Assembly: GCA_013152275.1 (NCBI GenBank)
Contig: JAADGS010000092.1
Coordinates: forward strand, 12,793-76,792
DNA length: 64,000 nucleotides
DNA from: Actinomycetota bacterium
GTDB lineage: Bacteria; Actinomycetota; Acidimicrobiia; Spongiisociales; UBA4744
Reading direction: 5' to 3'
Under the pieces are notes generated by a model. The model was given only the letters and a program-made list of their open reading frames with translations, was not told the DNA's origin and made no database searches. The translations under genes were made by a program, and so were the position numbers. This document shows, piece after piece, positions 1,318-18,487 of the stretch (position 1 is its first letter; the number at the start of each line of letters is the position of its first letter).

Positions 1318-3477
1318 GTGATGACCCGATTGAGATATCTCGTGGTCGGCGTTCTCGGATTGTTCCTCATTCTGTTGGTCGCAGGGTGCGACAACAAGGC
1401 CGCCGAGACGACCACGACGACGAGTCCACCACAGACCACAACCACAGCCACCGCTACCACAGCCCCGCCGACCGTCGAGCCGGCGGTGGAGATACCATTC
1501 CTCGCCGACTGGCAGGGATCCGGCCACGCCGATGCGAGCGCCGAGGCGTTCAATCACTGGAACGATGACGACCCGGCGATCATCCCCGCCCGCTGCGCGA
1601 AGTGTCACAGCACACCGGGCTTCCAGGACTACGTCGGCGCCGACGGCACCGCATTCGGGACGGTCGATGCCGACGCTGCGATCGGGACGACGGTGGAGTG
1701 CGTCGCCTGTCACAACGACGCGACCCTGAAACTCGACCATGTGACGATGCCTTCCGGTGTCGAACTCACCGGCCTCGACGCCGAGGCGCGATGCATGACC
1801 TGCCACCAGGGTCGGGCATGGAAGGGCACCGTGGACGAAGCCGTTCAGGGAATCGATGAGGACACGGTCTCCGAAGACCTCGGCTTCATCAACATCCACT
1901 ACTTCGCAGCGGCAGCGACCAAGTACGGGACCGTGACGAAGGGCGGCTACGAATACGACGGCAAGTCGTACGACGCGGTCTTCGCACATGTGGACGGATA
2001 CTCGACGTGTATCCAGTGCCACGATCAACACACGCTCGAACTCAAGGTCGACGAGTGCTCGACGTGCCACGCGGGAGTGTCGTCGGTCCAAGACCTCGAG
2101 AACATCCGGATGGCCGGCTCGGAAGTCGATTACGACGGCGATGGCGACATCACCGAAGGCATCGCCTCCGAGATCGAAGGTCTGCAAGAGAAGCTGTACG
2201 CAGCAATCCAGGCGTACGCCTCGTCCAAGGTCGGCACACCGATCGTCTACGCCGCAGAGTCGTACCCGTACTTCTTCGTCGACACGAACGCGAACGGCGA
2301 CGCCGACGGGGAGGAAGCCTCCTACGGCAACAAGTATGCGAGCTGGACCCCGCGACTCCTGAAGGCGACCTACAACTATCAGGTCTCCATCAAGGATCCC
2401 GGCGGGTATGCCCACGGCGGCAAGTACATCATCGAGCTGCTCGTCGACTCGACCGACGACCTGAACTCGGTGCTGTCATCGCCGATCGCCATGACCGACG
2501 TGCACCGCATCGACGCCGGCCACTTCGCAGGATCCGAAGCGGCGTTCCGCCACTGGGACAAAGACGGTGAGATCCCGGCGTCGTGCAGCAAGTGCCACTC
2601 GGCGACCGGTCTCCCGCTCTTCTTCAAAGAAGGCGTCACGATCGCGCAGCCGGTTTCCAACGGCCTCTTGTGCTCGACCTGCCACAGCGATCTGTCGACC
2701 TTTGATCGATACGAGGTTGCTTCGGTGACCTTCCCGAGTGGGGCAAAGATCGACAGCGGCAGCAACAACATGAACCTGTGCATGACGTGTCACCAAGGCA
2801 GGGAGTCGACCGTGTCGGTCGACAAGCTGATCGGCGACACGAAGGCCGATGTGGTGAGCGACTCGCTCCGGTTCCTGAACGTGCACTACTTCGCGGCCGG
2901 AGCGACGATCTTCGGAGACCAGGCGAAGGGCGCCTACGAGTACGCGGGCAAGACCTATGTCGGCTACAACGAGGATCACCCGCTGAACCAGTGCACCCAG
3001 TGTCACGATCAGCACGCCCTGGAAGTCCGGGTCGACAAGTGCTCGGCCTGTCACGGCACGGTCGCCACCGAGGACGACCTGCACGCCATCCGCATGTCCA
3101 GCATCGACTACGACGGTGACGGCGACACGACCGAAGGCATGTGGGACGAGATCCAAACCATGCGGGCCGACCTGCTCGCCGCCATCCAGGCCTACGCGGC
3201 CAAGACGGCGGGGGCCGAAGCGATCGTCTACGACCCGAACTCGTACCCGTACTACTTCATCGACACGAACGGCGATGGAGTGGCCGGCGCCGACGAGGCG
3301 AACTACGGAAACCGCTACGGCACATGGACACCCCGCTTGCTGCGGGCCGCGTACAACTATCAGTACGCGACGAAGGATCCGGGCGGGTTCGCCCACAACG
3401 GCGAGTACATCGTCCAGACCCTGTACGACAGCATCAAGGACGTCGGCGGCGATGTCTCGGGGATGACCCGACCGTAG
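1318..3477 (+). CDS. Decahaem c-type cytochrome lipoprotein with internal tandem duplication (two pentahaem modules, each followed by a ~150 aa haem-free domain)
   Basis: Signal peptide with lipobox LVAGC, then a Thr/Pro-rich linker (ETTTTTSPPQTTTTATATTAPPTVEP). There are 10 CxxCH motifs: CAKCH, CVACH, CMTCH, CIQCH, CSTCH, then CSKCH, CSTCH, CMTCH, CTQCH, CSACH. The two halves are clearly paralogous (e.g. ...RCMTCHQGRAWKGTVDEAV... versus ...LCMTCHQGRESTVSVDKL...; YPYFFVDTNANGD versus YPYYFIDTNGDGV). RBS GGAGG lies 8 nt upstream of the ATG. Confidence 0.9.
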   Translation: MMTRLRYLVVGVLGLFLILLVAGCDNKAAETTTTTSPPQTTTTATATTAPPTVEPAVEIPFLADWQGSGHADASAEAFNHWNDDDPAIIPARCAKCHSTPGFQDYVGADGTAFGTVDADAAIGTTVECVACHNDATLKLDHVTMPSGVELTGLDAEARCMTCHQGRAWKGTVDEAVQGIDEDTVSEDLGFINIHYFAAAATKYGTVTKGGYEYDGKSYDAVFAHVDGYSTCIQCHDQHTLELKVDECSTCHAGVSSVQDLENIRMAGSEVDYDGDGDITEGIASEIEGLQEKLYAAIQAYASSKVGTPIVYAAESYPYFFVDTNANGDADGEEASYGNKYASWTPRLLKATYNYQVSIKDPGGYAHGGKYIIELLVDSTDDLNSVLSSPIAMTDVHRIDAGHFAGSEAAFRHWDKDGEIPASCSKCHSATGLPLFFKEGVTIAQPVSNGLLCSTCHSDLSTFDRYEVASVTFPSGAKIDSGSNNMNLCMTCHQGRESTVSVDKLIGDTKADVVSDSLRFLNVHYFAAGATIFGDQAKGAYEYAGKTYVGYNEDHPLNQCTQCHDQHALEVRVDKCSACHGTVATEDDLHAIRMSSIDYDGDGDTTEGMWDEIQTMRADLLAAIQAYAAKTAGAEAIVYDPNSYPYYFIDTNGDGVAGADEANYGNRYGTWTPRLLRAAYNYQYATKDPGGFAHNGEYIVQTLYDSIKDVGGDVSGMTRP

Positions 3478-3716: not shown

Positions 3717-4913
3717 ATGAAACGATCCCTACTGCTGCTGGTAGTCGTTTTTGCAATGATTCTCGCCGCGTGTGCCGGACCGGCCGGCGACACAGGACCT
3801 GCAGGGCCCGCGGGGCCCCAAGGACCTGCCGGGCCGGCCGGACCTGCCGGACCCGCGGCGCCTGCCGCCGCAACCGTCGGAGCCGACTACGTGGGAACAC
3901 AGACGTGTGCCGGATGCCATCCGGACAACGCCGAGAAGTTCCTCAAGTCGGGACATCCGTACAAACTGAACAAGGTGGTCGACGGACAACCGCCGACGTA
4001 CCCGTTCACCGAGATCACCCAGGTTCCTGAGGGGTACACCTGGGACGACATCACGTACGTGATCGGTGGGTACAACTGGAAGGCCCGTTTCATCGGACTC
4101 GACGGTTTCATCATCACCGGCGACGAAAACGCCAAAACGCAGTACAACCTGCCGAACCCGACCATCGGGCTCGGAGACAATTGGGTCGCGTACCACGCGG
4201 GTCAACAGAAGGCGTATGACTGCGGTCCTTGTCATACGACGGGATACCGGCCCGAAGGCCATCAGGATGGACTCGAGGGGATTATCGGAACCTGGGCGGA
4301 GCCCGGGATCCAGTGTGAAGAGTGCCACGGCCCTGGAAGCAACCACGTGGCGGATCCGTATGGAGTCGCGATGAAGGTGGACGTGTCGTCCGAGGCATGT
4401 ACTTCATGTCACCGACGCGGGTCGACCCTGACGATCGACGCCAAAGGAGGATTCATCAAGCACCACGAGCAGGGTGAGGAGCTGTTGCAGACAAAGCACG
4501 CGTCCCTCAGCTGTGTCACGTGCCATGATCCGCATACAGGCGTCATCGCGCTACGTAAGGCCGGAGAGGACTTCGCAGCGAACTTCCCGTGTCAAACCTG
4601 CCACGAGGAACAGGCCGACTACCAGAAGTCGACCGTCATGTCGGGCTTCGTCAAATGCATCGACTGTCACATGCCACGGATCGTCAAGTCCGCGGTCGGT
4701 GATCCCGCTGCATGGACCGGCGACATCCGAACACACCTGTTCGCCATCGACCCCAACCTGACCAACCAGTTCTCCGAGGACGGCTCGGTAGCCAACTCGG
4801 CGATCACGCTGGATTGGGCCTGCAAGTCGTGTCACCGTGACGGTGGTACGGCGAGCGTCAAGACGGACGAGGAACTGAAGGCGACGGCCGAGGGATACCA
4901 CTCGAAACCGTAA
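3717..4913 (+). CDS. Octahaem c-type cytochrome lipoprotein with collagen-like (GPAGP)n N-terminal linker
   Basis: Signal peptide with lipobox ILAACAG, then GPAGDTGPAGPAGPQGPAGPAGPAGPAAPAAA. There are 8 CxxCH motifs: CAGCH, CGPCH, CEECH, CTSCH, CVTCH, CQTCH, CIDCH, CKSCH. RBS GGAAGGAGG precedes the ATG. Confidence 0.9.
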   Translation: MKRSLLLLVVVFAMILAACAGPAGDTGPAGPAGPQGPAGPAGPAGPAAPAAATVGADYVGTQTCAGCHPDNAEKFLKSGHPYKLNKVVDGQPPTYPFTEITQVPEGYTWDDITYVIGGYNWKARFIGLDGFIITGDENAKTQYNLPNPTIGLGDNWVAYHAGQQKAYDCGPCHTTGYRPEGHQDGLEGIIGTWAEPGIQCEECHGPGSNHVADPYGVAMKVDVSSEACTSCHRRGSTLTIDAKGGFIKHHEQGEELLQTKHASLSCVTCHDPHTGVIALRKAGEDFAANFPCQTCHEEQADYQKSTVMSGFVKCIDCHMPRIVKSAVGDPAAWTGDIRTHLFAIDPNLTNQFSEDGSVANSAITLDWACKSCHRDGGTASVKTDEELKATAEGYHSKP

Positions 4914-5070: not shown

Positions 5071-5433
5071 ATGACGGGAGACCGGACAGTGGACCACACA
5101 GACATCGCCCGAACGCTGCAGGAGAGAAAGCGGGTTCTCGAGACAGAGTTGGCACACCTTGTCGAGCCTCCCGTCGCCGGAACGAACCTGTCCTTCGGAA
5201 AGCGAATCGGAGACGGGACCACCGAAGCGGTCGAGCGCATCAACACCACGGCGGCGGCACGTTCTCTCGCGGCCTCCCTCGCCGCCACCGACCGGGCGCT
5301 CGCCAAACTCGACGAGGGCACCTACGGCATCTGTGACCTCTGCGGCGACGCGATACCCCGGGAACGACTCGACGCCCGCCCCACGACGGCGACGTGTGTC
5401 GACTGCAGCCGACAGGGAACTGCCACCGGTTGA
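5071..5433 (+). CDS. TraR/DksA-family C4-type zinc-finger protein
   Basis: 120 aa with a C-terminal CDLCG...(17 aa)...CVDC four-cysteine finger and an N-terminal coiled-coil-like region. This matches DksA/TraR family architecture. Confidence 0.7.
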   Translation: MTGDRTVDHTDIARTLQERKRVLETELAHLVEPPVAGTNLSFGKRIGDGTTEAVERINTTAAARSLAASLAATDRALAKLDEGTYGICDLCGDAIPRERLDARPTTATCVDCSRQGTATG

Positions 5434-8569: not shown

Positions 8570-10135
8570 TCAATACCCCTGCGCCGGGGTGTGACACTGC
8601 GTGCACTTGATCTGTTTCCACGCGTCTCCGATGTCGACAGGATGCTGGAAGGCAAGACCGGCCACGCTGTTCTCGATGTCGGCGAGGTTGTCCGAGGGGC
8701 CCTGGGCGGCGATCGTATGACACGAGTTGCACGAAGAGGAGATCCGTGTCCCGTCATCGCTCTCCAGATCCGAGAAGTGGCACCGGAAACAGCCGTCGTT
8801 GACAAAGTGGCTGAGGTTGTCCTCGCGGGCCCGGTAGTCGGTCTTCATCTCCGGGAAGAAGTTGGCGTCGTAGATGCGCACCAGGGTGTCGGCGGCCTTC
8901 TCGACCTGGCCCTGATCCACCTTGCCGGGATACTGCTTCGCGTAGTAGGCCAGGAGCCCGGACCGGATCGCCTCGTCTGCCTCCGGTTTCGTGTCATATG
9001 GCGCGTTGAGCAAGGTCAGCCCCTGCCAGCGGACGAACGGGAGGTCCTTGGAGATCGTGCCCTTGGTCATCTCGAGGTTGATCGCCGTCGCCGGAGGGAG
9101 GAAGTCGTGACTGGGCCGGTTGTGGCAGTCCATGCAGTCCAAGATACGAACTTCGACGTCGGGCGAATCGGGATCGACCACCGCATCGGGACGCTTGAAG
9201 ACGGTGACCTTCCCCGTCTCGCCGTCCGTGAACCGCACCCAGATCATCTGCTGGCGCTTCTTGTCGGTCGTCACGTATTCGATCTTGTTCTCGCCGAGCA
9301 TGTGCCAGTGGATGCCCTCCTGCTTGCCGGTTCGGGGGTTCCCCCCACCGACTTTCATGAGCAGACTGATCGTCCACGGCGAGTTCGCCTCGTTGGTCCG
9401 GTAGTACGTTTTCGTGACGAGCTTCTCGCCATAGAACTGATCGGGCCAGTGGCATCCCTCACAGGTCTGTTGAGCAGGTCGCAGACTCGTCACCGGTGTC
9501 GGCACGGGACGGTCGTACGAGTTGGTCAGCACCGCCACCACCTGGCGGATACCGTCGATCTTGGCGCGCACGAAGAACGATGCGCCGGGGCCGATGTGGC
9601 ACTCTGCACAGGCGACGCGAGCGTGCGGAGACTGCTGATAGGTGACCCACTGTGGGTTCATCACCGTGTGGCACGCCTCCCCGCAGAACGTTGCGGAGTC
9701 GGTGACTTCGTACCCCTTGTAACCACCCCAGGCGACCGTGCCGAGCAACATCGCCGTGAGGATGCCGAACAGCGCAAGGGAGCGCATGTACCGGGGGTTC
9801 GACGGCTCGAACCGAAGGTTGAACCGGACGTGTTCTCCGCGCCGGCGAGCCCTGACGACCTGGATGCGGATGGCGAGCAGGAAGAGGATGAGGCCGAGCA
9901 GAACCACCGAGGGAAAACCGATGAATGTGACGAGTCCTCGATACGGGTTGCCGGCGGGTGAACTCAGGTCGACGAATGCGAGGATGGCGAACCCGAGTAT
10001 CCCGGCGACGACGAGCGCGCCGCCCACCGCAGCCAAAGGATGGCGGTAGAGGCTCCTGCCCTCGACCGCCTCGGCCTTGGTCTCGCTCTCCCTGTCACTC
10101 ACGCTCGATCCCTCCTCAACCGATCTCTGATCCAC
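8570..10135 (-). CDS. Membrane-anchored heptahaem c-type cytochrome (N-terminal TM helices plus 7 CxxCH); ImcH-like putative quinol oxidase
   Basis: Two N-terminal hydrophobic helices (ALVVAGILGFAILAFV; VTFIGFPSVVLLGLILFLLAI; SLALFGILTAMLLGTVAW). The 7 CxxCH motifs are CGEACH, CAECH, CEGCH, CMDCH, CFRCH, CNSCH, CTQCH. It is the last gene of the minus-strand cytochrome operon. Confidence 0.85.
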   Translation of the reverse strand: MDQRSVEEGSSVSDRESETKAEAVEGRSLYRHPLAAVGGALVVAGILGFAILAFVDLSSPAGNPYRGLVTFIGFPSVVLLGLILFLLAIRIQVVRARRRGEHVRFNLRFEPSNPRYMRSLALFGILTAMLLGTVAWGGYKGYEVTDSATFCGEACHTVMNPQWVTYQQSPHARVACAECHIGPGASFFVRAKIDGIRQVVAVLTNSYDRPVPTPVTSLRPAQQTCEGCHWPDQFYGEKLVTKTYYRTNEANSPWTISLLMKVGGGNPRTGKQEGIHWHMLGENKIEYVTTDKKRQQMIWVRFTDGETGKVTVFKRPDAVVDPDSPDVEVRILDCMDCHNRPSHDFLPPATAINLEMTKGTISKDLPFVRWQGLTLLNAPYDTKPEADEAIRSGLLAYYAKQYPGKVDQGQVEKAADTLVRIYDANFFPEMKTDYRAREDNLSHFVNDGCFRCHFSDLESDDGTRISSSCNSCHTIAAQGPSDNLADIENSVAGLAFQHPVDIGDAWKQIKCTQCHTPAQGY

Positions 10136-10201: not shown

Positions 10202-11461
10202 TCAGCCTTGCGGCGCGCCGGCGCCGATCCATGCCTTCACCAACGCCAGGTCCTCGTCCGTGAACTTGCCGAAATGCGACCCGTCCCCCACTTTGACGAT
10301 CACATGGCTCGCATCCGCATCACCGGCCACGAACCCGGGCTCACCACTATCACCCCCGGCCAGCAACCCCGCATACGACGTAACGTCCAGACCGGAGGCC
10401 GGCGCACTGCCACCGTGACATGACCCGCACGCCGCCTCGAACACCGCCGCCACACCGGAGTTCCATGTCACGCCGGCAGAAGCCGCCGTGGTCGAGGGCG
10501 TCGCAGCCGACGTGGTCGCCGACGCGGCCGCGGTCGTCGTCGGAGCCGCGGTCGTCGGTGGAAGGGTCGTCGTGGGAGGCGTGGTCGACGGTGGAAGGGT
10601 CGTCGTCGGCAGCGGCGTGTAGATGGGTCCGGCGAGCGGCGAAGGCGCGACGGTCGTGATCGCCGTCTGCTCGAACGTCACGAACTCGTAGACCCCCATC
10701 AGCATCACGGCGGCCAGGACGGTGAAGGCCGGCCAGTACCTGAGCGCTCGGTTGCGTCGCTCCTCGGGATCGGTCTCGATCCGATCCGTTTCCGCGTCGA
10801 TCGTGGCCAGTTCGAGCGGGTGGAGCTCTTTCATCTGGGCACGCGACAGGTACCCGGTGAAGATCGAAGGGTTGAAGTGCCGCCAATGGACGTCGTAGGA
10901 GTGCCAGACGATGATGGCCAGCACGGCGAGGACCGCCTCCCAACCGTGGGCCGCCTTGGCCGCCGGCACGAAGACCCCCGGGAGGAACCGGGTGGTGGCG
11001 ATCGGATTCCAGAGCATGAAGCCGGTCACCGCCATCAGTACGGTGCCCCACACCAGCGACCAGTACTCCATCTTCTCGCCGACCGTATACCGGCCCTCGG
11101 GAGGCGGGCCCGACGCCAAACCGAGGTTGAACCTGATCCAGCCCCACGCGGCCGACAGGTCCGCCTTCCCCGGGATCAGCGAATGGGGTCTGCGGAGCAC
11201 GAAGCGCTTGTAGCCCAGCACACCGAGGTGGTACACGAGCGAGAGCAGCAGAATGGTTGCGAGAATGTGGTGGATTCTGCGGGTGTAGTCGATCCCTCCG
11301 AAGAGCCCGATGATCCAGTCCGAGAACCAGCGGTCGGCGTATTTCTGCACCAGTCCGGTGATCGCCAGACCGGTGAACGTGATGACCTGGACGGCGTGCT
11401 CGATCCGGTCCGACACCGTGAACCTCAGGATCTTCTCGTCGGGACGCGTCGTCTCAGTCAT
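10202..11461 (-). CDS. Dihaem cytochrome b (FdnI/HydC/CybH-like membrane domain) fused via a Pro/Thr-rich linker to a C-terminal monohaem cytochrome c domain
   Basis: The N-terminal ~250 aa has 4-5 TM helices with conserved His residues (RIEHAVQV, RRIHHILATI, AAHGWEAV...VWHSYDVHWRH). The linker reads PLPTTTLPPSTTPPTTTLPPTTAAPTTTAAASATTSAATPSTTAASAG. The C-terminal domain carries CGSCHG. The start overlaps the nonahaem gene end by 8 nt. Confidence 0.85.
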   Translation of the reverse strand: MTETTRPDEKILRFTVSDRIEHAVQVITFTGLAITGLVQKYADRWFSDWIIGLFGGIDYTRRIHHILATILLLSLVYHLGVLGYKRFVLRRPHSLIPGKADLSAAWGWIRFNLGLASGPPPEGRYTVGEKMEYWSLVWGTVLMAVTGFMLWNPIATTRFLPGVFVPAAKAAHGWEAVLAVLAIIVWHSYDVHWRHFNPSIFTGYLSRAQMKELHPLELATIDAETDRIETDPEERRNRALRYWPAFTVLAAVMLMGVYEFVTFEQTAITTVAPSPLAGPIYTPLPTTTLPPSTTPPTTTLPPTTAAPTTTAAASATTSAATPSTTAASAGVTWNSGVAAVFEAACGSCHGGSAPASGLDVTSYAGLLAGGDSGEPGFVAGDADASHVIVKVGDGSHFGKFTDEDLALVKAWIGAGAPQG

Positions 11462-12554
11462 GTCGTCGCCTCCTGAGGCGAGCGGCGAGCCTTCTCCGCA
11501 CGTCGAGTCCCACGGCGAGGAGCATCGCGCCGATCACGAGCGGGATGAGGATCTTGTAGAACATGTTCACCCAGTACACGAGCGGGGCCTCGGTGGTGCT
11601 CGGCGCATAGTGACTCAGCCATGCGTCGGGGAAGTTCGCCGTGGCATCCGGGTGGCACCGCCGGCACGTGCCGAGCAGATTCTTCTTGTACACGGAGCTG
11701 TCCGTGTCGCTGGGCGCCTTGATGTCATGAACACCGTGACAATCGACGCACACGGGCTTGTTCGTGTCCTGACCGGGAGCCAGCTTCTCGAAGAGAACGA
11801 CCGTCGTGCCGTGAAAGTCCGACAGGTACGAACTGAACACGTTCGTGGAGATGCCGTACTTGTCCATCAGGGCCTTGTTGGCGTGACAGTCCGCGCAGAT
11901 CTGCGGCGAGAACAGCCGGAACGGCGAATCGTCATGCGGACCCTTCACGTCATGGACGCCGTGACAGTCCGTGCAGGTCGGGACGTCCGGGTTGCCGGTC
12001 GTGAGCGCCTCCCCGTGCACGCTGTCCTCGTAGGCGTTGTAGATCTCCGAATGACATTTCCTGCACATCAGCGGAATGTTGGTTCGAGGCTCGCCGGGCG
12101 GTTGGACGTTGTGGGAACCGTGGCAGTCGGTGCAGACGGCCGCCTCCGTGACGCCGGCCTGGCGTGCGAGCTCGTGGTCGCTGTCGCGAGTCCCCGTGTA
12201 CTCGGAGTAGTGGCACGTCGCACAGGACGTATACATCTGTAGCGTGAAGCCGCGGCGGCTCTCGGCGGTGATCGGAGCGTGCGGATACGTGGAGATGTCC
12301 GTGTGACAGAGAACGCACGCCACATCGAGCTTGCCGTGAACCGAATCGGCGTACTCGTGACCGTCGACGGCAATGTCGAGCGTCTCCCCCGAGGGCAGTG
12401 GTATTCCCAGCGAGCTTCCCTCGTGACAGGAGAGACAGTAGGAGTTGTCCCACCGAGGGTCGGTCTGCGCGGCTGCCCGAGATTGCCCACCGAGCAGGAT
12501 CGCCGTACCGATGATCAGTGCACCGAGTACAACGATCCTTCTACATCTTTGCAT
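11454..12554 (-). CDS. Nonahaem c-type cytochrome, secreted, with a C-terminal transmembrane anchor
   Basis: Sec signal peptide (cleavage near AAAQT). The 9 CxxCH motifs are CLSCH, CVLCH, CATCH, CTDCH, CRKCH, CTDCH, CADCH, CVDCH, CRRCH. The C-terminal hydrophobic helix ILIPLVIGAMLLAVGL is followed by RRRLAARLRRRRHD. Confidence 0.9.
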   Translation of the reverse strand: MQRCRRIVVLGALIIGTAILLGGQSRAAAQTDPRWDNSYCLSCHEGSSLGIPLPSGETLDIAVDGHEYADSVHGKLDVACVLCHTDISTYPHAPITAESRRGFTLQMYTSCATCHYSEYTGTRDSDHELARQAGVTEAAVCTDCHGSHNVQPPGEPRTNIPLMCRKCHSEIYNAYEDSVHGEALTTGNPDVPTCTDCHGVHDVKGPHDDSPFRLFSPQICADCHANKALMDKYGISTNVFSSYLSDFHGTTVVLFEKLAPGQDTNKPVCVDCHGVHDIKAPSDTDSSVYKKNLLGTCRRCHPDATANFPDAWLSHYAPSTTEAPLVYWVNMFYKILIPLVIGAMLLAVGLDVRRRLAARLRRRRHD

Positions 12555-12615: not shown

Positions 12616-12633
12616 GGGACCTTTGGACCTTTG
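12616..12633. promoter_or_regulatory. Tandem direct repeat GGACCTTT GGACCTTT in the 106-bp region upstream of the cytochrome b/c operon; candidate operator
   Basis: Read directly from the sequence. It is the only intergenic space upstream of 12554. Confidence 0.3.
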
Positions 12634-12660
12634 CCGACCGCAAAAGACCCTTACTGGATC

Positions 12661-13965
12661 TCAGAGCCCGGCGAGGATCTCTCGCAAAGAGGGGCCCTTG
12701 ACGATCTCGATCCCGTAGGTGACGCGCGTTCCCGGCATGTCGAGGTCCAGCAGCGGAAGCAGATTGACCGGTGTGGCGACAACCACGACTTCGGGGTTCG
12801 CCCGCCTGATCGTTTCGGCGAGTTCGGCCCGCTGCTCTTCTCCGTAGCCCATCGCCGGGAGGAGCCGGCCGATGTGGGAGAACTTCGCAAACGTGTCGGC
12901 GATCGAACCGACGGCGAAGGGACGAGGGTCGATCAACTCGGCCGCCCCGAACTGCCTGGAGGCGATGACACCGGCACCGTACGCCATACCGCCGTGGGTC
13001 AGCGTCGGTCCATCCTCGACGACAAGCACACGCCTGCCGGCGATGAGGTCCGGGTCGGCGACGGTGATCGGCGAGTGGGCCTCGAGCACGACCGCGCTCG
13101 GGTTCGCCTCCCTCACGTCGGCGAGCACCGCGGCCACGTTCTTCTCCTCCGCAGTGCCGACCTTGTTGATCATCACCACATCGGCGCGCCGCAGGTTGGC
13201 CTCGCCCGGCCAGTATCTCAGTTCATGCCCCGGGCGGTGCGGGTCGACGACACAGATGTGCAGGTCGGGCCGGTAGAAGGGAAGATCGTTGTTCCCGCCG
13301 TCCCAGAGGATGACATCGGCTTCCTGCTCGGCGAGACGCAAGATCGCCTCGTAATCGACACCGGCGAAGATGACGCCGCCCTGCTCGATGTACGGTTCGT
13401 ACTCCTCGCGCTCTTCGATCGAGCAATCCGCGTCGATGAGGTCCTGATTGCTCGCGAACCGCTGAACCGCCTGTCTGACGAGATCTCCATAGGGCATGGG
13501 GTGGCGAATCGCCGCGACGCGTCTCCCCGCGGCGTTGAGCGTATGCCAGACGGCACGGCTGGTCGGAGATTTCCCCGCGCCCGTTCTGGCGGCCGTGACG
13601 GCGACGACGGGCAGGTCCGAAGGGATCATCGTCTGCGCACCGGGAAGCTCGTAGGAGGCGCCTGCCGCCACGGCACGCGCAGCGAGGTGCATCACGTGCT
13701 CGTGGGTGACGTCCGAATAGGCGAAGACGACCCGATCGACGTTGTAGACGGCGATCAGACGTTCCATGTCCTCCTCGGGGAGGATCGGGATCCCGTACGG
13801 ATACAACTCGCCCGCCAGCGATGCGGGATACCTCCTGCCGTCGATGTTCGGAATCTGTGTGGCGGTGAACGCCACGACGTCATAGTGAGGATCGTCCCGG
13901 TACAGAACGTTGAAGTTGTGAAAGTCCCGTCCGGCAGCCCCCAGAATCAGTATCCGTTCGCTCAT
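12661..13965 (-). CDS. Rossmann-like plus P-loop NTPase domain protein (cyclic 2,3-diphosphoglycerate synthetase-like or DUF1611-like); function uncertain
   Basis: Start MSERILILGAAGRDFHNF is preceded by GGAGG. The internal Walker-A-like motif is VTAARTGAGKSPTS. Length is 434 aa. The longer ORF to 14022 lacks an RBS. Confidence 0.55.
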   Translation of the reverse strand: MSERILILGAAGRDFHNFNVLYRDDPHYDVVAFTATQIPNIDGRRYPASLAGELYPYGIPILPEEDMERLIAVYNVDRVVFAYSDVTHEHVMHLAARAVAAGASYELPGAQTMIPSDLPVVAVTAARTGAGKSPTSRAVWHTLNAAGRRVAAIRHPMPYGDLVRQAVQRFASNQDLIDADCSIEEREEYEPYIEQGGVIFAGVDYEAILRLAEQEADVILWDGGNNDLPFYRPDLHICVVDPHRPGHELRYWPGEANLRRADVVMINKVGTAEEKNVAAVLADVREANPSAVVLEAHSPITVADPDLIAGRRVLVVEDGPTLTHGGMAYGAGVIASRQFGAAELIDPRPFAVGSIADTFAKFSHIGRLLPAMGYGEEQRAELAETIRRANPEVVVVATPVNLLPLLDLDMPGTRVTYGIEIVKGPSLREILAGL

Positions 13966-14022
13966 TGCGACCTCCGTAACAACAGTCCCACTATTGTCGC
14001 CGGATCGAGGGAACGCTCCCAA

Positions 14023-14775
14023 TCAACCGAGAAACCGCTCGATCTCGAGAGCGACCTTGCGGGGCGCCTCCCCGACGACGGCATGTCCTGCGTCCTCGAC
14101 GACCACGAGACGGCCTCCCGTGGCGGCGGCCACCCGTTCGGCGATGGCGACATACCGGGGATCCCGCTCTCCGGCGATGACCAGCACCGGCATTTCCAGC
14201 TCTTCGAGGCGATCCCCGTACCACGGCTGTGCCCCCTGGCCCATCCCCCGCAGGGCACCGGCGATGCCTCGAGCGGTGTTCTCCAGCCGAAGCGCCACGT
14301 CCGCTTCGAGCCACGCGGCACCCCTTCGGTGAAGACCATCGAAGATCGGCCGGTTCATCCAGCGTTCGAAGAAGGACTCCAGGTCCTCACTCTCGATGAC
14401 ACGCGCCAGTGCCTCGTCACGGGTCTGCCGGACGAGGCGGCGCCGCTCGTCGGCGATCCCGATTCCCGTAGAGATCAGGATGAGGTGCGAGACGGCCTGC
14501 GGATGTTCGAGCGCGACACCGAGCGCGATGCGCCCGCCTTGCGAGTAGCCGAGGAGCGCTCGACCACCCGTCACGGCGGCGACCGCCGCGATCGCCGCGG
14601 GGAAGGTTGCCGGAAACGCTGCGGCTCCTCCATGACCGGGAAGGTCCGGAGCCAGGATCTCGCGTCCGGTGATCGCTGCCAGTTCCGCGAACATGCCTCC
14701 GTGCTGCGTGAAGCCGTGCAGCGCGACGATGGCAGGCGGCCGACCGGCGAATCTTCTGACGGGGAGTCCTTCCAT
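14023..14775 (-). CDS. Alpha/beta-hydrolase; positional MenH/BpoC-like (SHCHC synthase candidate), divergent from menD
   Basis: Nucleophile elbow GYSQGG. HG oxyanion motif in IVALHGFTQHG. Catalytic His near the C-terminus (DAGHAV). Synteny with menD resembles mycobacterial bpoC-menD. Confidence 0.65.
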   Translation of the reverse strand: MEGLPVRRFAGRPPAIVALHGFTQHGGMFAELAAITGREILAPDLPGHGGAAAFPATFPAAIAAVAAVTGGRALLGYSQGGRIALGVALEHPQAVSHLILISTGIGIADERRRLVRQTRDEALARVIESEDLESFFERWMNRPIFDGLHRRGAAWLEADVALRLENTARGIAGALRGMGQGAQPWYGDRLEELEMPVLVIAGERDPRYVAIAERVAAATGGRLVVVEDAGHAVVGEAPRKVALEIERFLG

Positions 14776-14783
14776 GGACTGTA

Positions 14784-16433
14784 TTGTTGCTGCTCGTGAG
14801 CAACTCCGCCTACAGAGCGACCGCCGTGCTCGTAGCCGCCCTCGCCCGCCTGGGTCTGCGGCATGCGTGCCTCACGCCGGGATCGAGGAACACGCCGCTG
14901 TCACTCGCATTCGCCGAGCACCCCGACGTCACCGATTGGATCCACCACGACGAGCGGTCGTCGTCCTTCTTCGCCCTCGGGCTCGCCAAGGCGACGAGGG
15001 CACCGGTTGCCGTGGTGACCACCTCCGGAACCGCCGCTGCGGAGCTCTTCCCTGCCGCCGTGGAAGCCCGCCACGGGACGGTGCCCCTCCTGCTGATCAC
15101 CGCGGATCGTCCCCCGGAACTTCGCGGTATCGGCGCTCCCCAGACGATCGACCAGGTCGGCATGTTCGGGGAGATGGTGCGCCGGTCGACCGACGCGATG
15201 CTCACCGAACTGGGTCCGGACGGAATCACCGATCTGGCCGTCGCGACGTGGAACGAGGCGATCCGGCGCCCGGGCGGCCCGGTCCACCTCAATCTCGGCT
15301 TCCGCGAACCGTTCGTTCCCACCGATCTCACCGTTGCCGAGGTCGACGTGCCCGCGGCCGACCCTGTCGGAAAGACGCCGGATGCGGGTTCCCTCCGGAC
15401 GGCTGCAGCGCTGCTGTCGGGCAAGCGAGCGCTCGTCGCCGCCGGCCCCCTCGACCATCCGGGTTTCACCGATGCCGTCACCGCACTGGCCGCCCAGGCC
15501 GGCTGGCCGATCCTGGCCGATCCGCTCAGCCAGCTGCGCGCAGGCCCCCACGATCGATCGCACGTGGTCACCTCCGGGGACGCACTCTTTCGCACGGACC
15601 GCATCCCGGGACCGATCGAAGCCGTGTTGCGCTTCGGGGCGCCTCCGACCTCCAAGGCGTTCATGACCTGGCTGGAGGGACATCCGCACGTCCCCCAAGT
15701 CGTCGTGGACGAGGTCGGCGGCCGGGACCCTTCCCGGACGGCACGGCTGATGATCACCGCCGATCCCGTCGAGTTCGCCGAAGCCCTGTCCGTCGAGCCT
15801 GTGGCCGCGGACTGGACGCACGCCTGGATGGATGCCGATGGACACGCCCGGGACGCCCTGGCGGGGATGGTGTTCCCCTCCGGGCCTGCCGTCGTGCAGA
15901 CCCTGGCGGAGCGACTCCCGGCCCGCTCGAACCTCTACGTCGCCTCCTCGATGCCGGTGAGAGATGTCGACCTGTTCTTCCCCTCGATCGACCGGCCGAT
16001 CCGACTGCTGGCGAACCGCGGCGTCAACGGCATCGATGGTCTCGTCTCTTCGGGTCTGGGCGCCTCCGCCACCGGCACGACGACGTTTGTCCTCACCGGC
16101 GACTTGTCCGCTCTGCACGACCTGGGGGCGCTCGCAACCGCTGCACGGCTTCGCCTGCCGGTCACGATCGTCGTGGTGAACAACGACGGCGGTGGCATCT
16201 TCTCGTTCCTCCCGCAGGCGAAGCTGCCGCGCCATTTCGAGCGGGTGTTCTCCACCCCGCACGGTCTGTCCTTCGTGCCCGTGGCCGAGGCGTTGGGTCT
16301 GCGCGCCGTCCACGTCGACCGCCGCGATCGGTTCGTTTCGGCGCTCGGTGAACCGGGGCCGTTGCTCATCGAGGTGACGACCGATCGCGATGCGAACGTC
16401 CGGATCCACGAGGAGGCGCTCGCGAGACTCTGA
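14784..16433 (+). CDS. menD: 2-succinyl-5-enolpyruvyl-6-hydroxy-3-cyclohexene-1-carboxylate synthase (ThDP-dependent)
   Basis: N-terminus ...NSAYRATAVLVAALARLGLRHACLTPGSRNTPL aligns with MenD N-termini. The ThDP-binding region GDLSALHDLG...VVVNNDGGGIFSF is present. The longest ORF starts at TTG 14784; GTG at ~14796 is an alternative. Confidence 0.85.
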   Translation: MLLLVSNSAYRATAVLVAALARLGLRHACLTPGSRNTPLSLAFAEHPDVTDWIHHDERSSSFFALGLAKATRAPVAVVTTSGTAAAELFPAAVEARHGTVPLLLITADRPPELRGIGAPQTIDQVGMFGEMVRRSTDAMLTELGPDGITDLAVATWNEAIRRPGGPVHLNLGFREPFVPTDLTVAEVDVPAADPVGKTPDAGSLRTAAALLSGKRALVAAGPLDHPGFTDAVTALAAQAGWPILADPLSQLRAGPHDRSHVVTSGDALFRTDRIPGPIEAVLRFGAPPTSKAFMTWLEGHPHVPQVVVDEVGGRDPSRTARLMITADPVEFAEALSVEPVAADWTHAWMDADGHARDALAGMVFPSGPAVVQTLAERLPARSNLYVASSMPVRDVDLFFPSIDRPIRLLANRGVNGIDGLVSSGLGASATGTTTFVLTGDLSALHDLGALATAARLRLPVTIVVVNNDGGGIFSFLPQAKLPRHFERVFSTPHGLSFVPVAEALGLRAVHVDRRDRFVSALGEPGPLLIEVTTDRDANVRIHEEALARL

Positions 16434-16436
16434 TCT

Positions 16437-16493
16437 CCCCGTTCTCGTGACGGTTGAGCAGGATTATTCCCGTCAACCGTCACGAGAACGGGG
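16437..16493. repeat. REP-like palindromic element copy 1 (21-bp arms CCCCGTTCTCGTGACGGTTGA / TCAACCGTCACGAGAACGGGG, 15-nt loop)
   Basis: Read directly from the sequence. It lies between convergent menD (stop 16431-16433) and menF. The right arm encodes the last residues and the TGA of menF. Confidence 0.8.
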
Positions 16494-17685
16494 GGATTTG
16501 GAGGATGTCGAGCAGCCCCCGCAGTTTCGCCTCGGTCTCCGCCACTTCGGCCACCACGTTCGAGTCCCGCACGATCCCGGCACCCGCGTACACGCGTGCC
16601 TCGTGGTTCCGAAGAAGGGCGCAGCGCAGGGCCACGGCCGCCTCCCCATCGCCGGAGGCGTCGGTCCATCCGACACCGCCCGCATACCAACCCCGATCGA
16701 TCGCTTCGACCTCTCGAATGTAGGCGAGGGCGGCGGCGGTGGGTGTGCCGCACACCGCGGGGGTCGGGTGCAGCGCCAGAGCGAGTTGGAGCACGCCCAT
16801 CGGCCTGGCGAGCAGCCCCCGGATCTCCGTCCCCAGGTGCAGGATGTTGGCGAGGCGCATGACCGTCGGACCGCCGGGAACCGACAGCTCCGACGTCAAC
16901 GGACCCAGCACGCGGACGATGTCATCGACGACGAACTGATGCTCCCTACGATCCTTCGCGCTCTCCAGCAGCGTCCGCGCCGACTCCTCGTCCTCGATCG
17001 AGCCCCTGCCACGCACCGCGCTGCCCGCCAGCGGAAACGATCGGATCGATGCCCCCCACCGTTCCACGAGCAACTCCGGGCTGGCACCCACGAACGCACT
17101 CCCATTCTCCACCCACCCGTACGCGAACGCGTCCGGAAACCGTTCCCGGAGCAAGGCCACGACGTCGAACGGCCGGATGTCGTCGAAGGCCAGCATCACC
17201 GAACGCGCCAACACGACCTTGGAGAGAAGCCCGGCTTCGATCGTCTCGCGTGCCCGTTCGACCATGTCCGCCCACACGTCGGATTCGGGATCCCTGGCCG
17301 TCACCCGGCCGACCGGCACGAGCGTCTCTCCCGGGTGATCGAGCCGACGGAGCATCGCCGGCATCTCCTCCTGGCCCGGAGCGATGCGAAGACGGCCTCC
17401 TCCCTCTCCCTTGACCAGGGTCACCGCCGGCAGGACGACGCTTCCGGTCTTCTTGGAACCGTCGAACGGAAACGCGAAGAACAGCCTGCCCTCGGAGGGA
17501 GGCCGAGCCAGGAGATCATCGCTGCGCCAGGCCACACCGACCCCGACTGCTTCCTCCCGACCTCCGAAGAAGAAGACGGGAGCGCCGGCGCGCGACGCTG
17601 CGCGGGCGAGATCGATCGGTTGCACCGCGCATGGCACCGACAGGCCCGCCGCCAGGTCGGTGCAGACATCGTTGGGAAAAAGCAC
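16480..17685 (-). CDS. menF: Isochorismate synthase (menaquinone-specific)
   Basis: Chorismate-binding enzyme motifs (PELLVER..., SFPLAGSAVRG, GWYAGGVGW). The longest ORF extends to 17793 and would overlap the upstream hydrolase by ~100 nt. A GTG at ~17685 (VLFPNDV) gives a 10-bp spacer and is preferred. Confidence 0.8.
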   Translation of the reverse strand: MLFPNDVCTDLAAGLSVPCAVQPIDLARAASRAGAPVFFFGGREEAVGVGVAWRSDDLLARPPSEGRLFFAFPFDGSKKTGSVVLPAVTLVKGEGGGRLRIAPGQEEMPAMLRRLDHPGETLVPVGRVTARDPESDVWADMVERARETIEAGLLSKVVLARSVMLAFDDIRPFDVVALLRERFPDAFAYGWVENGSAFVGASPELLVERWGASIRSFPLAGSAVRGRGSIEDEESARTLLESAKDRREHQFVVDDIVRVLGPLTSELSVPGGPTVMRLANILHLGTEIRGLLARPMGVLQLALALHPTPAVCGTPTAAALAYIREVEAIDRGWYAGGVGWTDASGDGEAAVALRCALLRNHEARVYAGAGIVRDSNVVAEVAETEAKLRGLLDILQIPPFS

Positions 17686-17695
17686 GGGACCGAGT

Positions 17696-18487
17696 TTACG
17701 GAGCCACGAAGGACACGATCTGCGCTGCGACGAGGTCCGGCCGCTCCATGGGAGCGAAGTGCGAGGCGTTCGGCAGTATCTCGAACCGTGCATTCGGAAT
17801 CAGCGCGGTGAACTCGGCGATGTAGTCGGCGGTGAATGCGGCGGATCGTTCACCGGCGAGCACCAGAACGGGCAGGTCCAGTTCCCCCAGGCGCAAGTAG
17901 GCGCCGTGAGTGATACCACCGCGGTACACCTCCGCCTCGACCTCCGGCCGGCACTTCAGCCGCCAGACACCGTCTCTTTCGACGAGACCTCCGCGCACAT
18001 AGGCTTCGAGGGCACGCCGATCCCACGATGCGAACGGTCTGCGGTAATGCTCGACCGCCGCATCGATACTCTTGAATCCGTCCCTGCGCCGTAAGGCGCC
18101 CTGGACAAGCAGAGACAGCTCTCTCCTCCCGACCGCGAGCGGGAAGATCACGGGCTCGATCAGAACGAGCCCGGCGAACCTGCCCGGAGCCAGCAACTCG
18201 GCCATGGCGAGCGCCGCACCACCCATCGAATGTCCGACACCGACGACCGGCTCGGTGATCCCCGAGATGACCTCGAGCCCGTGCCTGGCGAAGTCCCACC
18301 AGTCGACCGGAAAGGAGGACAACGGCTCGGCGTCACCGTGTCCGGGCGCATCCCAGGCGATGATCGATCGCTCCTCCCCGGCGGCGCGCAGTTCGGTGAC
18401 CACCGGCGCCCACACCTCCTTGCAGAACCCCGTTGCGTGAGCGAGGGCAAGCCGGCCGTGCCCGGATGCGGGCCAACGCCGGGTCAA
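17696..18487 (-). CDS. Alpha/beta-hydrolase (second MenH-like candidate)
   Basis: Nucleophile elbow GHSMGG, HG motif in WDAPGHG, C-terminal His (NASHFAP). It lies upstream of menF in the same orientation. Confidence 0.65.
   Translation of the reverse strand: MTRRWPASGHGRLALAHATGFCKEVWAPVVTELRAAGEERSIIAWDAPGHGDAEPLSSFPVDWWDFARHGLEVISGITEPVVGVGHSMGGAALAMAELLAPGRFAGLVLIEPVIFPLAVGRRELSLLVQGALRRRDGFKSIDAAVEHYRRPFASWDRRALEAYVRGGLVERDGVWRLKCRPEVEAEVYRGGITHGAYLRLGELDLPVLVLAGERSAAFTADYIAEFTALIPNARFEILPNASHFAPMERPDLVAAQIVSFVAP

Follow-up and report, generated by a model that had tools for sequence, protein, structure and literature searches.

A tandemly duplicated decahaem lipoprotein with predicted NrfA-type modules, a probable extracytoplasmic electron-transfer cytochrome of Actinomycetota and Chloroflexota

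In a 64,000-nucleotide (nt) stretch of DNA from an Actinomycetota bacterium (contig JAADGS010000092.1, positions 12,793–76,792; hereafter the window) we analyzed a gene at positions 1318–3477 of the forward strand that encodes a decahaem c-type cytochrome lipoprotein. The open reading frame (ORF) comprises 719 amino acids (aa) if read from GTG 1318. It contains a lipobox, LVAGC, and exactly ten CxxCH motifs, in agreement with a preliminary description of this DNA, which had already regarded the product as a decahaem lipoprotein. ATG 1321 is the likelier start codon and would give a protein of 718 aa, since a Shine-Dalgarno-like GGAGG (1310–1314) lies 6 nt ahead of it and a homologue with 95% identity (P0001) is 718 aa long and starts with MTRLRY. 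A simple scan for promoters and terminators around the gene revealed nothing exceeding shuffle expectation.

The predicted protein is composed of a signal peptide, a linker and two modules, all encoded on the forward strand. The signal peptide with the lipobox (1318–1389; aa 1–24, hydrophobic segment aa 5–23) ends in the lipid-anchor Cys C24, the only Cys outside the ten CxxCH motifs, and is followed by a Thr/Pro-rich low-complexity linker (1390–1482; aa 25–55). Module N (1483–2487; aa 56–390) contains CxxCH motifs at aa 93, 128, 159, 231 and 247, a DYDGDGD loop, three long helices (282–305, 345–358 and 369–383) and a beta hairpin (YPYFF). Module C (2488–3474; aa 391–719) contains CxxCH motifs at aa 423, 452, 488, 559 and 575, the same loop, three long helices (608–629, 672–686 and 690–708), a hairpin and an invariant terminal ..RP. 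The haem-free stretch that had been described in each half as about 150 aa long is indeed present, but its length is nearer 140 aa. Directly before the first long helix of each module is a DYDGDGD..EG...E loop (aa 269–285 and 595–611; nt ~2122–2172 and ~3100–3150), in which D271, D273, D275, E280 and E285 are conserved at 89–97% over 428 modules. By its motif it looks like a putative DxDxDG-type Ca2+-binding loop.

The anchor and the linker recur in relatives of the protein. The consensus of the lipobox region across 46 homologues is L..LAAC; a rough lipobox pattern was found in about half of the 159 two-module relatives (see below), and the remainder have an N-terminal hydrophobic anchor. Past the lipid Cys the relatives have a linker with a median length of 36 aa, rich in T/V/A/E/P, which in some of them is replaced by Big_2 Ig-like domains.

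The tandem duplication of a [pentahaem + haem-free] module, suggested in the preliminary description, was confirmed by self-alignment. BLASTP comparison of aa 56–390 with aa 391–719 gave 45% identity over 326 columns (277 bits, E 2e-96), far exceeding the scores that haem motifs alone produce: alignments of the N half with four other cytochromes of the window reached at most 28.9 bits, and those with 200 shuffles of the C half at most 26.9 bits. All haem motifs are in register between the halves, and the conserved blocks YPYFF.DTN (YPYYF-type in the second half) and WTPRLL..YNYQ also align, as had been proposed for the former. The five CxxCH motifs of each half thus keep the described order and register; their spacings (35/31/72/16 in the N half and 29/36/71/16 in the C half) are similar, though not identical as had been thought. 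Identity is 57% for N with N and 51% for C with C modules of different proteins, and 44% for N with C. Since modules in the same position of different proteins are closer to each other than the two modules of one protein are, the duplication must be older than the spread of the family. Single-module proteins are marginally nearer to the N type.

Searches with family models revealed no family-specific match in Pfam or NCBIfam, only generic cytochrome c7/c3 matches. PF22113 (domains II/IV of MtrC/MtrF) gave 22.1 bits with a cutoff of 30, PF02335 (cytochrome c552) gave 14.5 bits with a cutoff of 24.1, and neither TIGR03507 (OmcA/MtrC, NCBIfam; E ≤ 0.01) nor any NCBIfam NrfA model matched the protein. 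When the whole protein and a 50-sequence module profile were searched against solved structures, only haem-motif-level matches were obtained; the family assignment therefore rests on the predicted fold. An AlphaFold2 model was built from 46 homologues (mean pLDDT 83, pTM 0.67). In this model each half consists of a loop-rich haem-binding part and three long helices, with a short hairpin between helices 1 and 2, while aa 24–55 are disordered (pLDDT <50). Structure comparison placed OcwA first (score 10.2), followed by NrfA of Geobacter lovleyi (10.0), NrfA 1QDB (9.7), octahaem nitrite reductase (9.6), NrfA of Desulfovibrio (8.9) and OmhA (8.8), with HAO (5.9) and MccA (5.3) at lower ranks; no chain of MtrC, OmcA, UndA or MtrF was among the 60 structure matches listed. 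Foldseek concurred, its top match being OcwA and the next NrfA.

A "C-terminal module" of NrfA type is common to NrfA, ONR, HAO, OcwA and OmhA (Soares et al., PMC9250108). Judging by the model, each half of the decahaem protein is one such NrfA-superfamily module, with five haems in the NrfA order and then three helices, and we file the protein as a variant of this superfamily with predicted tandem arrays of the complete C-terminal module. The preliminary description had set its picture of alternating domains against a single globular NrfA/HAO-like fold: the NrfA-like fold was found in each module, but as two units and not as one globule. On the other hand, the domain logic of MtrC/OmcA/UndA, to which the protein had been likened, did not hold, the haem-free part being predicted as three helices with a hairpin.

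To describe the family, we compared several sets of sequences. More than 5,477 relatives were found at E ≤ 1e-3 among 8,000 candidates scored (90% clustering), and one module searched against a library clustered at 50% matched 1,247 clusters at E ≤ 1e-3 and 374 at E ≤ 1e-30. The relatives are named in their sources "class III cytochrome C family", "cytochrome c3 family", "hypothetical" and once "OmcB". The closest one, 95% identical, comes from an unclassified bacterium, "bacterium BMS3Abin02". A locus scan with one genome per species gave at least 571 loci, and carriers and neighbourhoods were read from the best 80 of them. Among these, the Chloroflexota carriers belong to Anaerolineae, Caldilineae, Ardenticatenia, Thermoflexales and Promineifilaceae, the Actinomycetota carriers are mostly Acidimicrobiia, and the sole cultured carrier is Thermanaerothrix solaris. 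In partner-gene identity the window is similar to the Actinomycetota-type loci. Our search of the literature on the family, on BMS3Abin02 and on multihaem cytochromes of Acidimicrobiia, Thermanaerothrix or Chloroflexi yielded no description of the protein. The family is very large, unnamed and found mainly in Chloroflexota and Actinomycetota.

Domain architectures were determined in 270 sequences. Two complete modules were present in 159 proteins and three in 14 (14–15 CxxCH motifs, some behind Big_2 Ig-like domains), while about 20 were complete single-module pentahaem proteins of 355–406 aa, with the ...RP terminus in 14 of the 18 read. Single-module relatives, about which the preliminary description had asked, therefore exist; they were found only through the representative-library search (50% clustering), and no single-module paralogue was detected in the window or in the best 80 related loci. 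In other proteins a single module is part of a fusion, the partners being Ser/Thr protein kinases (at least four clusters, with a membrane helix in between in the two that were read), a methyl-accepting chemotaxis protein, a caspase-like peptidase, STAND ATPase-TPR proteins and a HEAT-repeat protein (P0191, P0196, P0221, P0233, P0194, P0207, P0232, P0254 and P0222). The fusions to kinases and a chemoreceptor indicate that the module also serves as a sensor domain.

The gene immediately downstream of the decahaem gene, g3 (3717–4913, forward strand), adjoins it, is co-conserved with it and encodes an octahaem lipoprotein. The family profile of g3 matched OcwA with E 1e-22 (profile positions 51–243 on OcwA 4–198), MccA with 3.6e-10 and OmhA with 1.6e-8; g3 is thus a homologue of OcwA/OmhA/MccA in both sequence and fold. 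It passes PF22113 (the MtrC/MtrF haem domain) with 47 bits against the cutoff of 30, which the decahaem protein does not. Straight after its lipid-anchor Cys g3 has an uninterrupted (Gly-X-Y)9 run (aa 21–47); 111 of 120 g3 homologues have at least six Gly-X-Y triplets, mostly 9–14, and the collagen-like BclA is also matched by the g3 profile. Such a collagen-type stalk would imply a trimer on a rigid spacer of about 8–12 nm. A literature search for collagen-like multihaem proteins gave nothing relevant.

Three further cytochrome genes are located on the reverse strand. The first, g8 (8570–10135), encodes a membrane-anchored NapC/NirT/NrfH-like hexahaem cytochrome (PF03264, 41 bits, above cutoff; TIGR03153 NrfH, 56 bits, below cutoff) with three hydrophobic segments and is a candidate quinol dehydrogenase. 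The second, g9 (10202–11461), encodes an FdnI/HydC-like cytochrome b (PF01292 and PF07635 above cutoffs), whose tail consists of a Thr/Pro/Ala-rich linker of about 50 aa and a C-terminal monohaem c domain (PSCyt1). The third, g10 (11454–12554), overlaps g9 by 8 nt and encodes a nonahaem cytochrome with nine CxxCH motifs and a C-terminal membrane helix (hydrophobic segment 335–353). CbcL of Geobacter combines nine c-haems with a HydC/FdnI-type b cytochrome (PMC6295460). Because g10 and g9 together match this architecture, we infer that they may form a split CbcL-like quinol dehydrogenase.

To reveal which of these genes accompany the family, partners were counted within 8 kb of the decahaem gene in those 45 related loci that have 6 kb or more of sequence to each side. 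At least one of the partner cytochromes (g3, g8, g9, g10) was present in 40 of the 45 loci, the g9–g10 pair in 30, and g8 and g3 in 21 each. The usual order in Chloroflexota is g3-g10-g9-decahaem on one strand. In two loci of Anaerolineales/Chloroflexi, L032 (5210–12058) and L036 (5410–12088), three tandem two-module paralogues stand right after g10-g9, each of them 49–60% identical to the window protein. Genes for CcmF/CcmH/thioredoxin-like maturation proteins, an NrfC-like 4Fe-4S protein and an NrfD-like membrane protein are likewise present in about 19 loci, and 18 loci have a gene for a HisKA_3 histidine kinase. The 30 neighbour clusters of widest occurrence included no porin family.

In the window and in BMS3Abin02 (GCA_002897675.1) the cytochrome genes are surrounded by menaquinone genes. 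These are, in the window, a menB fragment (2–274), menA (189–1172), menH (14023–14775, reverse strand), menD (14784–16433, forward strand) and menF (16480–17793, reverse strand); menE lies farther upstream in BMS3Abin02. A DksA/TraR-type C4 zinc-finger gene (5071–5433, forward strand) follows g3, and its position is conserved in BMS3Abin02. The stretch from this gene to g8 contains genes of sugar metabolism, for a GFO/IDH/MocA oxidoreductase, a DeoC-type aldolase and a PfkB kinase, which lie outside the conserved cluster elsewhere. An ORF of 453 aa (12661–14022, reverse strand) between g10 and menH is a called gene in BMS3Abin02, without a Pfam hit. It should be mentioned that a 722-aa ORF on the forward strand (12631–14799) was discounted: it is an antisense artefact that the high G+C content produces, and the true genes of this region are on the reverse strand.

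We consider it about 55% probable that the decahaem protein is a lipid-anchored extracytoplasmic electron-transfer cytochrome of a menaquinol-linked chain, built of two tandem NrfA-type units, each of which, in the model, is a set of five haems with a three-helix bundle. Whereas the analysis itself shows the anatomy, the duplication, the predicted fold class, the size of the family and its gene neighbourhood, the location, the partners and the direction and acceptor of the electrons are a proposal, as follows. Menaquinol would be oxidized in the membrane by the split CbcL-like pair of g10 (nonahaem) and g9 (cytochrome b) and/or by the NrfH-like g8. Electrons would then hop through the haems of the tethered decahaem protein, held off the membrane by its Thr/Pro-rich linker of about 30 aa, and the protein, alone or with the stalked g3, would hand them to an acceptor beyond the cytoplasmic membrane. 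This may be an Fe(III)/Mn(IV) mineral, humics, a shuttle or a partner cell; the reverse flow, i.e., electron uptake, would also be possible. This reading draws on the lipobox, the linker and the ten haem motifs, on OcwA as the top Foldseek match, on the co-conserved partner cytochromes, the recurrent cytochrome c maturation and NrfC/NrfD-like genes and the surrounding menaquinone genes, and on a number of conserved His residues sufficient for five bis-His haems per module. The long linkers and Big_2 spacers of the relatives fit a surface-exposed protein. OcwA and OmhA are experimentally studied cell-surface terminal reductases of the Gram-positive Thermincola and Carboxydothermus (PMC6703420; PMC7829351), and in Anaerolineales rich in multihaem cytochromes no porin-cytochrome complexes were found, probably for want of a Gram-negative envelope (PMC7399161). 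The family probably moves respiratory electrons outward in bacteria without a classical outer membrane. The earlier suggestion of a very distant or convergent terminal reductase is retained in so far as the protein may plausibly act as the last link of an extracytoplasmic electron-transfer chain or close to it; membership in the MtrC type is not.

Several points weigh against a conduit of this kind. Thermanaerothrix solaris is described as hydrolytic, with metal reduction unmentioned in the citation consulted. Ardenticatena maritima 110S, a Chloroflexota isolate with shown extracellular electron transfer (EET), has no more than seven haems per cytochrome and so lacks this decahaem protein. We found no paper on the family in the literature. 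Furthermore, the protein is about 60% identical across phyla, and many residues not involved in haem motifs (R166, Y195, Y218, N353, Y370 and the KDPG.. motif) are near-invariant, a pattern more usual in an enzyme or a fixed complex subunit than in fast-evolving mineral reductases. Finally, by homology haem 1 of each module would be the counterpart of the five-coordinate catalytic haem of NrfA/OcwA, in which case H194, the fifth His that is conserved, may not be a ligand but lie unbound on the distal side.

These last points lead to an alternative that we regard as unlikely but serious, namely a two-site NrfA-like enzyme in which haem 1 of each module (CAKCH in module N, CSKCH in module C) is five-coordinate and acts on a small soluble substrate. 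Nitrite, NO, hydroxylamine, sulfite or polysulfide would be reduced or oxidized in a distal pocket of H194/H523, R166/R495, Y195/Y524 and H80/H412, with electrons supplied by NrfH-like, NrfCD-like or CbcL-like quinol dehydrogenases. The predicted fold is NrfA-like, genes of NrfH-, NrfC- and NrfD-like proteins are close by, the high cross-phylum identity suits an enzyme, and a haem that binds ligands would be in keeping with the occurrence of the module as the outer part of kinases and of a chemoreceptor. Over the 428 modules H194 is conserved at 100%, R166 and Y195 at 94% each, and H80 at 84% (61% in single-module proteins). These residues form a possible pocket, but their register differs from that of NrfA R106/Y216/H264; the Arg/Tyr/His and Ca-site residues of NrfA are out of register. 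An hhalign comparison of the module profile with E. coli NrfA covered motifs 1–2 only, at 50% probability, pairing motif 1 with the catalytic CWSCK and motif 2 with haem 2; this is too weak for transferring active-site residues. The CxxCK motif itself is absent, the His of motif 1 being 100% conserved, and the family models for cytochrome c552 and NrfA are not reached. Five non-motif His residues (H70, H194, H224, H238 and H366, with equivalents in module C) are conserved at 97–100%, which is enough for five bis-His haems per module. The same count fits equally well the arrangement of NrfA/OcwA, in which four His are ligands and a fifth stands on the distal side without bonding; NrfA itself is expected to show five conserved non-motif His residues, four ligands and one catalytic. 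All structurally known relatives that retain haem 1 have it five-coordinate, with a non-bonding distal His (PMC9250108). Still, an open haem alone would be no proof of an enzyme for soluble substrates, because in OcwA two open haems and a weak activity with nitrite go together with the function of a surface reductase (PMC6703420).

A redox sensor or an electron store (capacitor), in which the module reports the redox state of the environment or buffers electrons, is improbable for the window protein. The single module does form the extracytoplasmic part of the Ser/Thr kinases (at least four clusters), the chemotaxis protein, the caspase-like protein and the STAND ATPases, and the HisKA_3 kinase gene is a recurrent neighbour. 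However, the window protein has no output domain, the family is co-conserved with quinol dehydrogenase-type cytochromes and not with regulators, and the arrays of two and three modules resemble the extension of a wire. Least credible of all, with hardly any probability left to it, is an outer-surface decahaem cytochrome of the MtrC/OmcA/UndA type, either a very distant member or a convergent copy. Ten haems, the lipid anchor, the internally duplicated [pentahaem + haem-free] unit and the weak PF22113 match (22 bits) speak for it. Against this, the haem-free parts are helical bundles and not beta-barrels in the model, PF22113 stays below its cutoff and TIGR03507 finds nothing, no MtrAB-like partner occurs among the conserved neighbours, and the carriers have no classical outer membrane. 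Membership in the MtrC/OmcA family proper was rejected on the grounds of fold, family models and partners.

A broader proposal can be made, which we advance tentatively and at less than even odds. The family would be a large, unnamed branch of the NrfA superfamily in which the complete unit is a free-standing block that can be copied and is present one, two or three times per protein, such arrays serving as the main surface conduit of Chloroflexota and Actinomycetota and the block also as the sensing domain of kinases and chemoreceptors, with a ligand-accessible haem perhaps kept in each module. The published account of the evolution of the superfamily speaks of grafting and pruning, and the word duplication does not occur in it (PMC9250108). 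If the proposal is true, whole-module tandem duplication extends this picture of multihaem cytochrome evolution, and the family would also point to a widespread route of EET in two phyla that are common in the environment. In structural terms, the family displays two ways of reusing the predicted NrfA unit, as tandem copies with 5, 10 and 15 haems and as a domain joined to signalling proteins. Anaerolineae and Caldilineae of the Chloroflexota, like the Acidimicrobiia, abound in sediments, aquifers, hot springs and wastewater sludge. Given its size and its conserved association with an OcwA homologue and with cytochromes of quinol dehydrogenase type, the family is a testable candidate for their electron conduit. 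If haem 1 is open, it would represent a new class, either of NrfA-like enzymes with two sites or of haem sensors.

Comparison with known systems revealed resemblances of different kinds. The protein shares with MtrC, OmcA, UndA and MtrF of Shewanella the ten haems (eleven in UndA), the lipobox, the duplicated [pentahaem + haem-free] unit and the presumed electron transfer beyond the cytoplasmic membrane. MtrC alternates its pentahaem domains, II and IV, with haem-free ones, I and III, which are beta-barrels. The decahaem protein differs from this group in the predicted helical-bundle structure of its haem-free part, in the absence of a family-model match and of an MtrAB partner, and in the different cell envelope of its carriers.

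The neighbourhood is similar to CbcL-dependent and Thermincola-type multi-cytochrome EET chains. Like CbcL, g10 and g9 combine a nine-haem part with a HydC/FdnI-type cytochrome b. As in such chains, there is an extra NapC/NirT-type cytochrome (here g8), and several tethered multihaem proteins are encoded in one neighbourhood. CbcL is a single polypeptide, whereas here two genes overlapping by 8 nt are found, and the downstream components belong to other families. A survey of 2018 reported no CbcL homologues in Chloroflexi or Actinobacteria (PMC6295460).

NrfA (1QDB, 6V0A, E. coli) has five haems with a like order of motifs and, as in the decahaem module, long C-terminal helices; the spacing is 35/31/72/16 in the decahaem protein and 38/49/73/32 in E. 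coli NrfA. Common landmarks are GH(A) before motif 1 and a His seven residues ahead of motif 4 (H224 and NrfA H275). Haem 1 of NrfA is bound by CxxCK and that of the decahaem protein by CxxCH, although CxxCH variants of NrfA exist (PMC9250108). The tandemly duplicated module, the lipid anchor and a score under the Pfam cytochrome c552 threshold further distinguish the protein, as do family-specific blocks absent from NrfA (DYDGDGD, YPYFF.DTN, WTPRLL..YNYQ and KDPG..AH). Lacking CxxCK and falling below the model thresholds, it is not NrfA proper.

The closest parallels are OcwA of Thermincola potens (6I5B) and OmhA of Carboxydothermus ferrireducens (6QVM). They have in common with the decahaem protein the NrfA-type pentahaem core with a C-terminal three-helix bundle and, as proposed here for the latter, an extracytoplasmic location in bacteria that have no classical outer membrane; moreover, a true OcwA homologue, g3, is encoded beside it. 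Two haems of OcwA are high-spin (PMC6703420). OcwA and OmhA consist of a c554-like tetrahaem N-module (with two extra haems in OmhA) and one NrfA-like C-module, whereas the decahaem protein has two NrfA-like C-modules, 45% identical to each other, without the c554-like part, and is a lipoprotein with a Thr/Pro linker. In sequence, the module profile matched 6i5b with E 0.043, at the haem motifs only, and the whole protein gave no match. Thus, although the absence of the c554-like N-module and of sequence similarity sets it outside the OcwA/OmhA group, the decahaem protein would, by analogy, work most like OcwA and OmhA.

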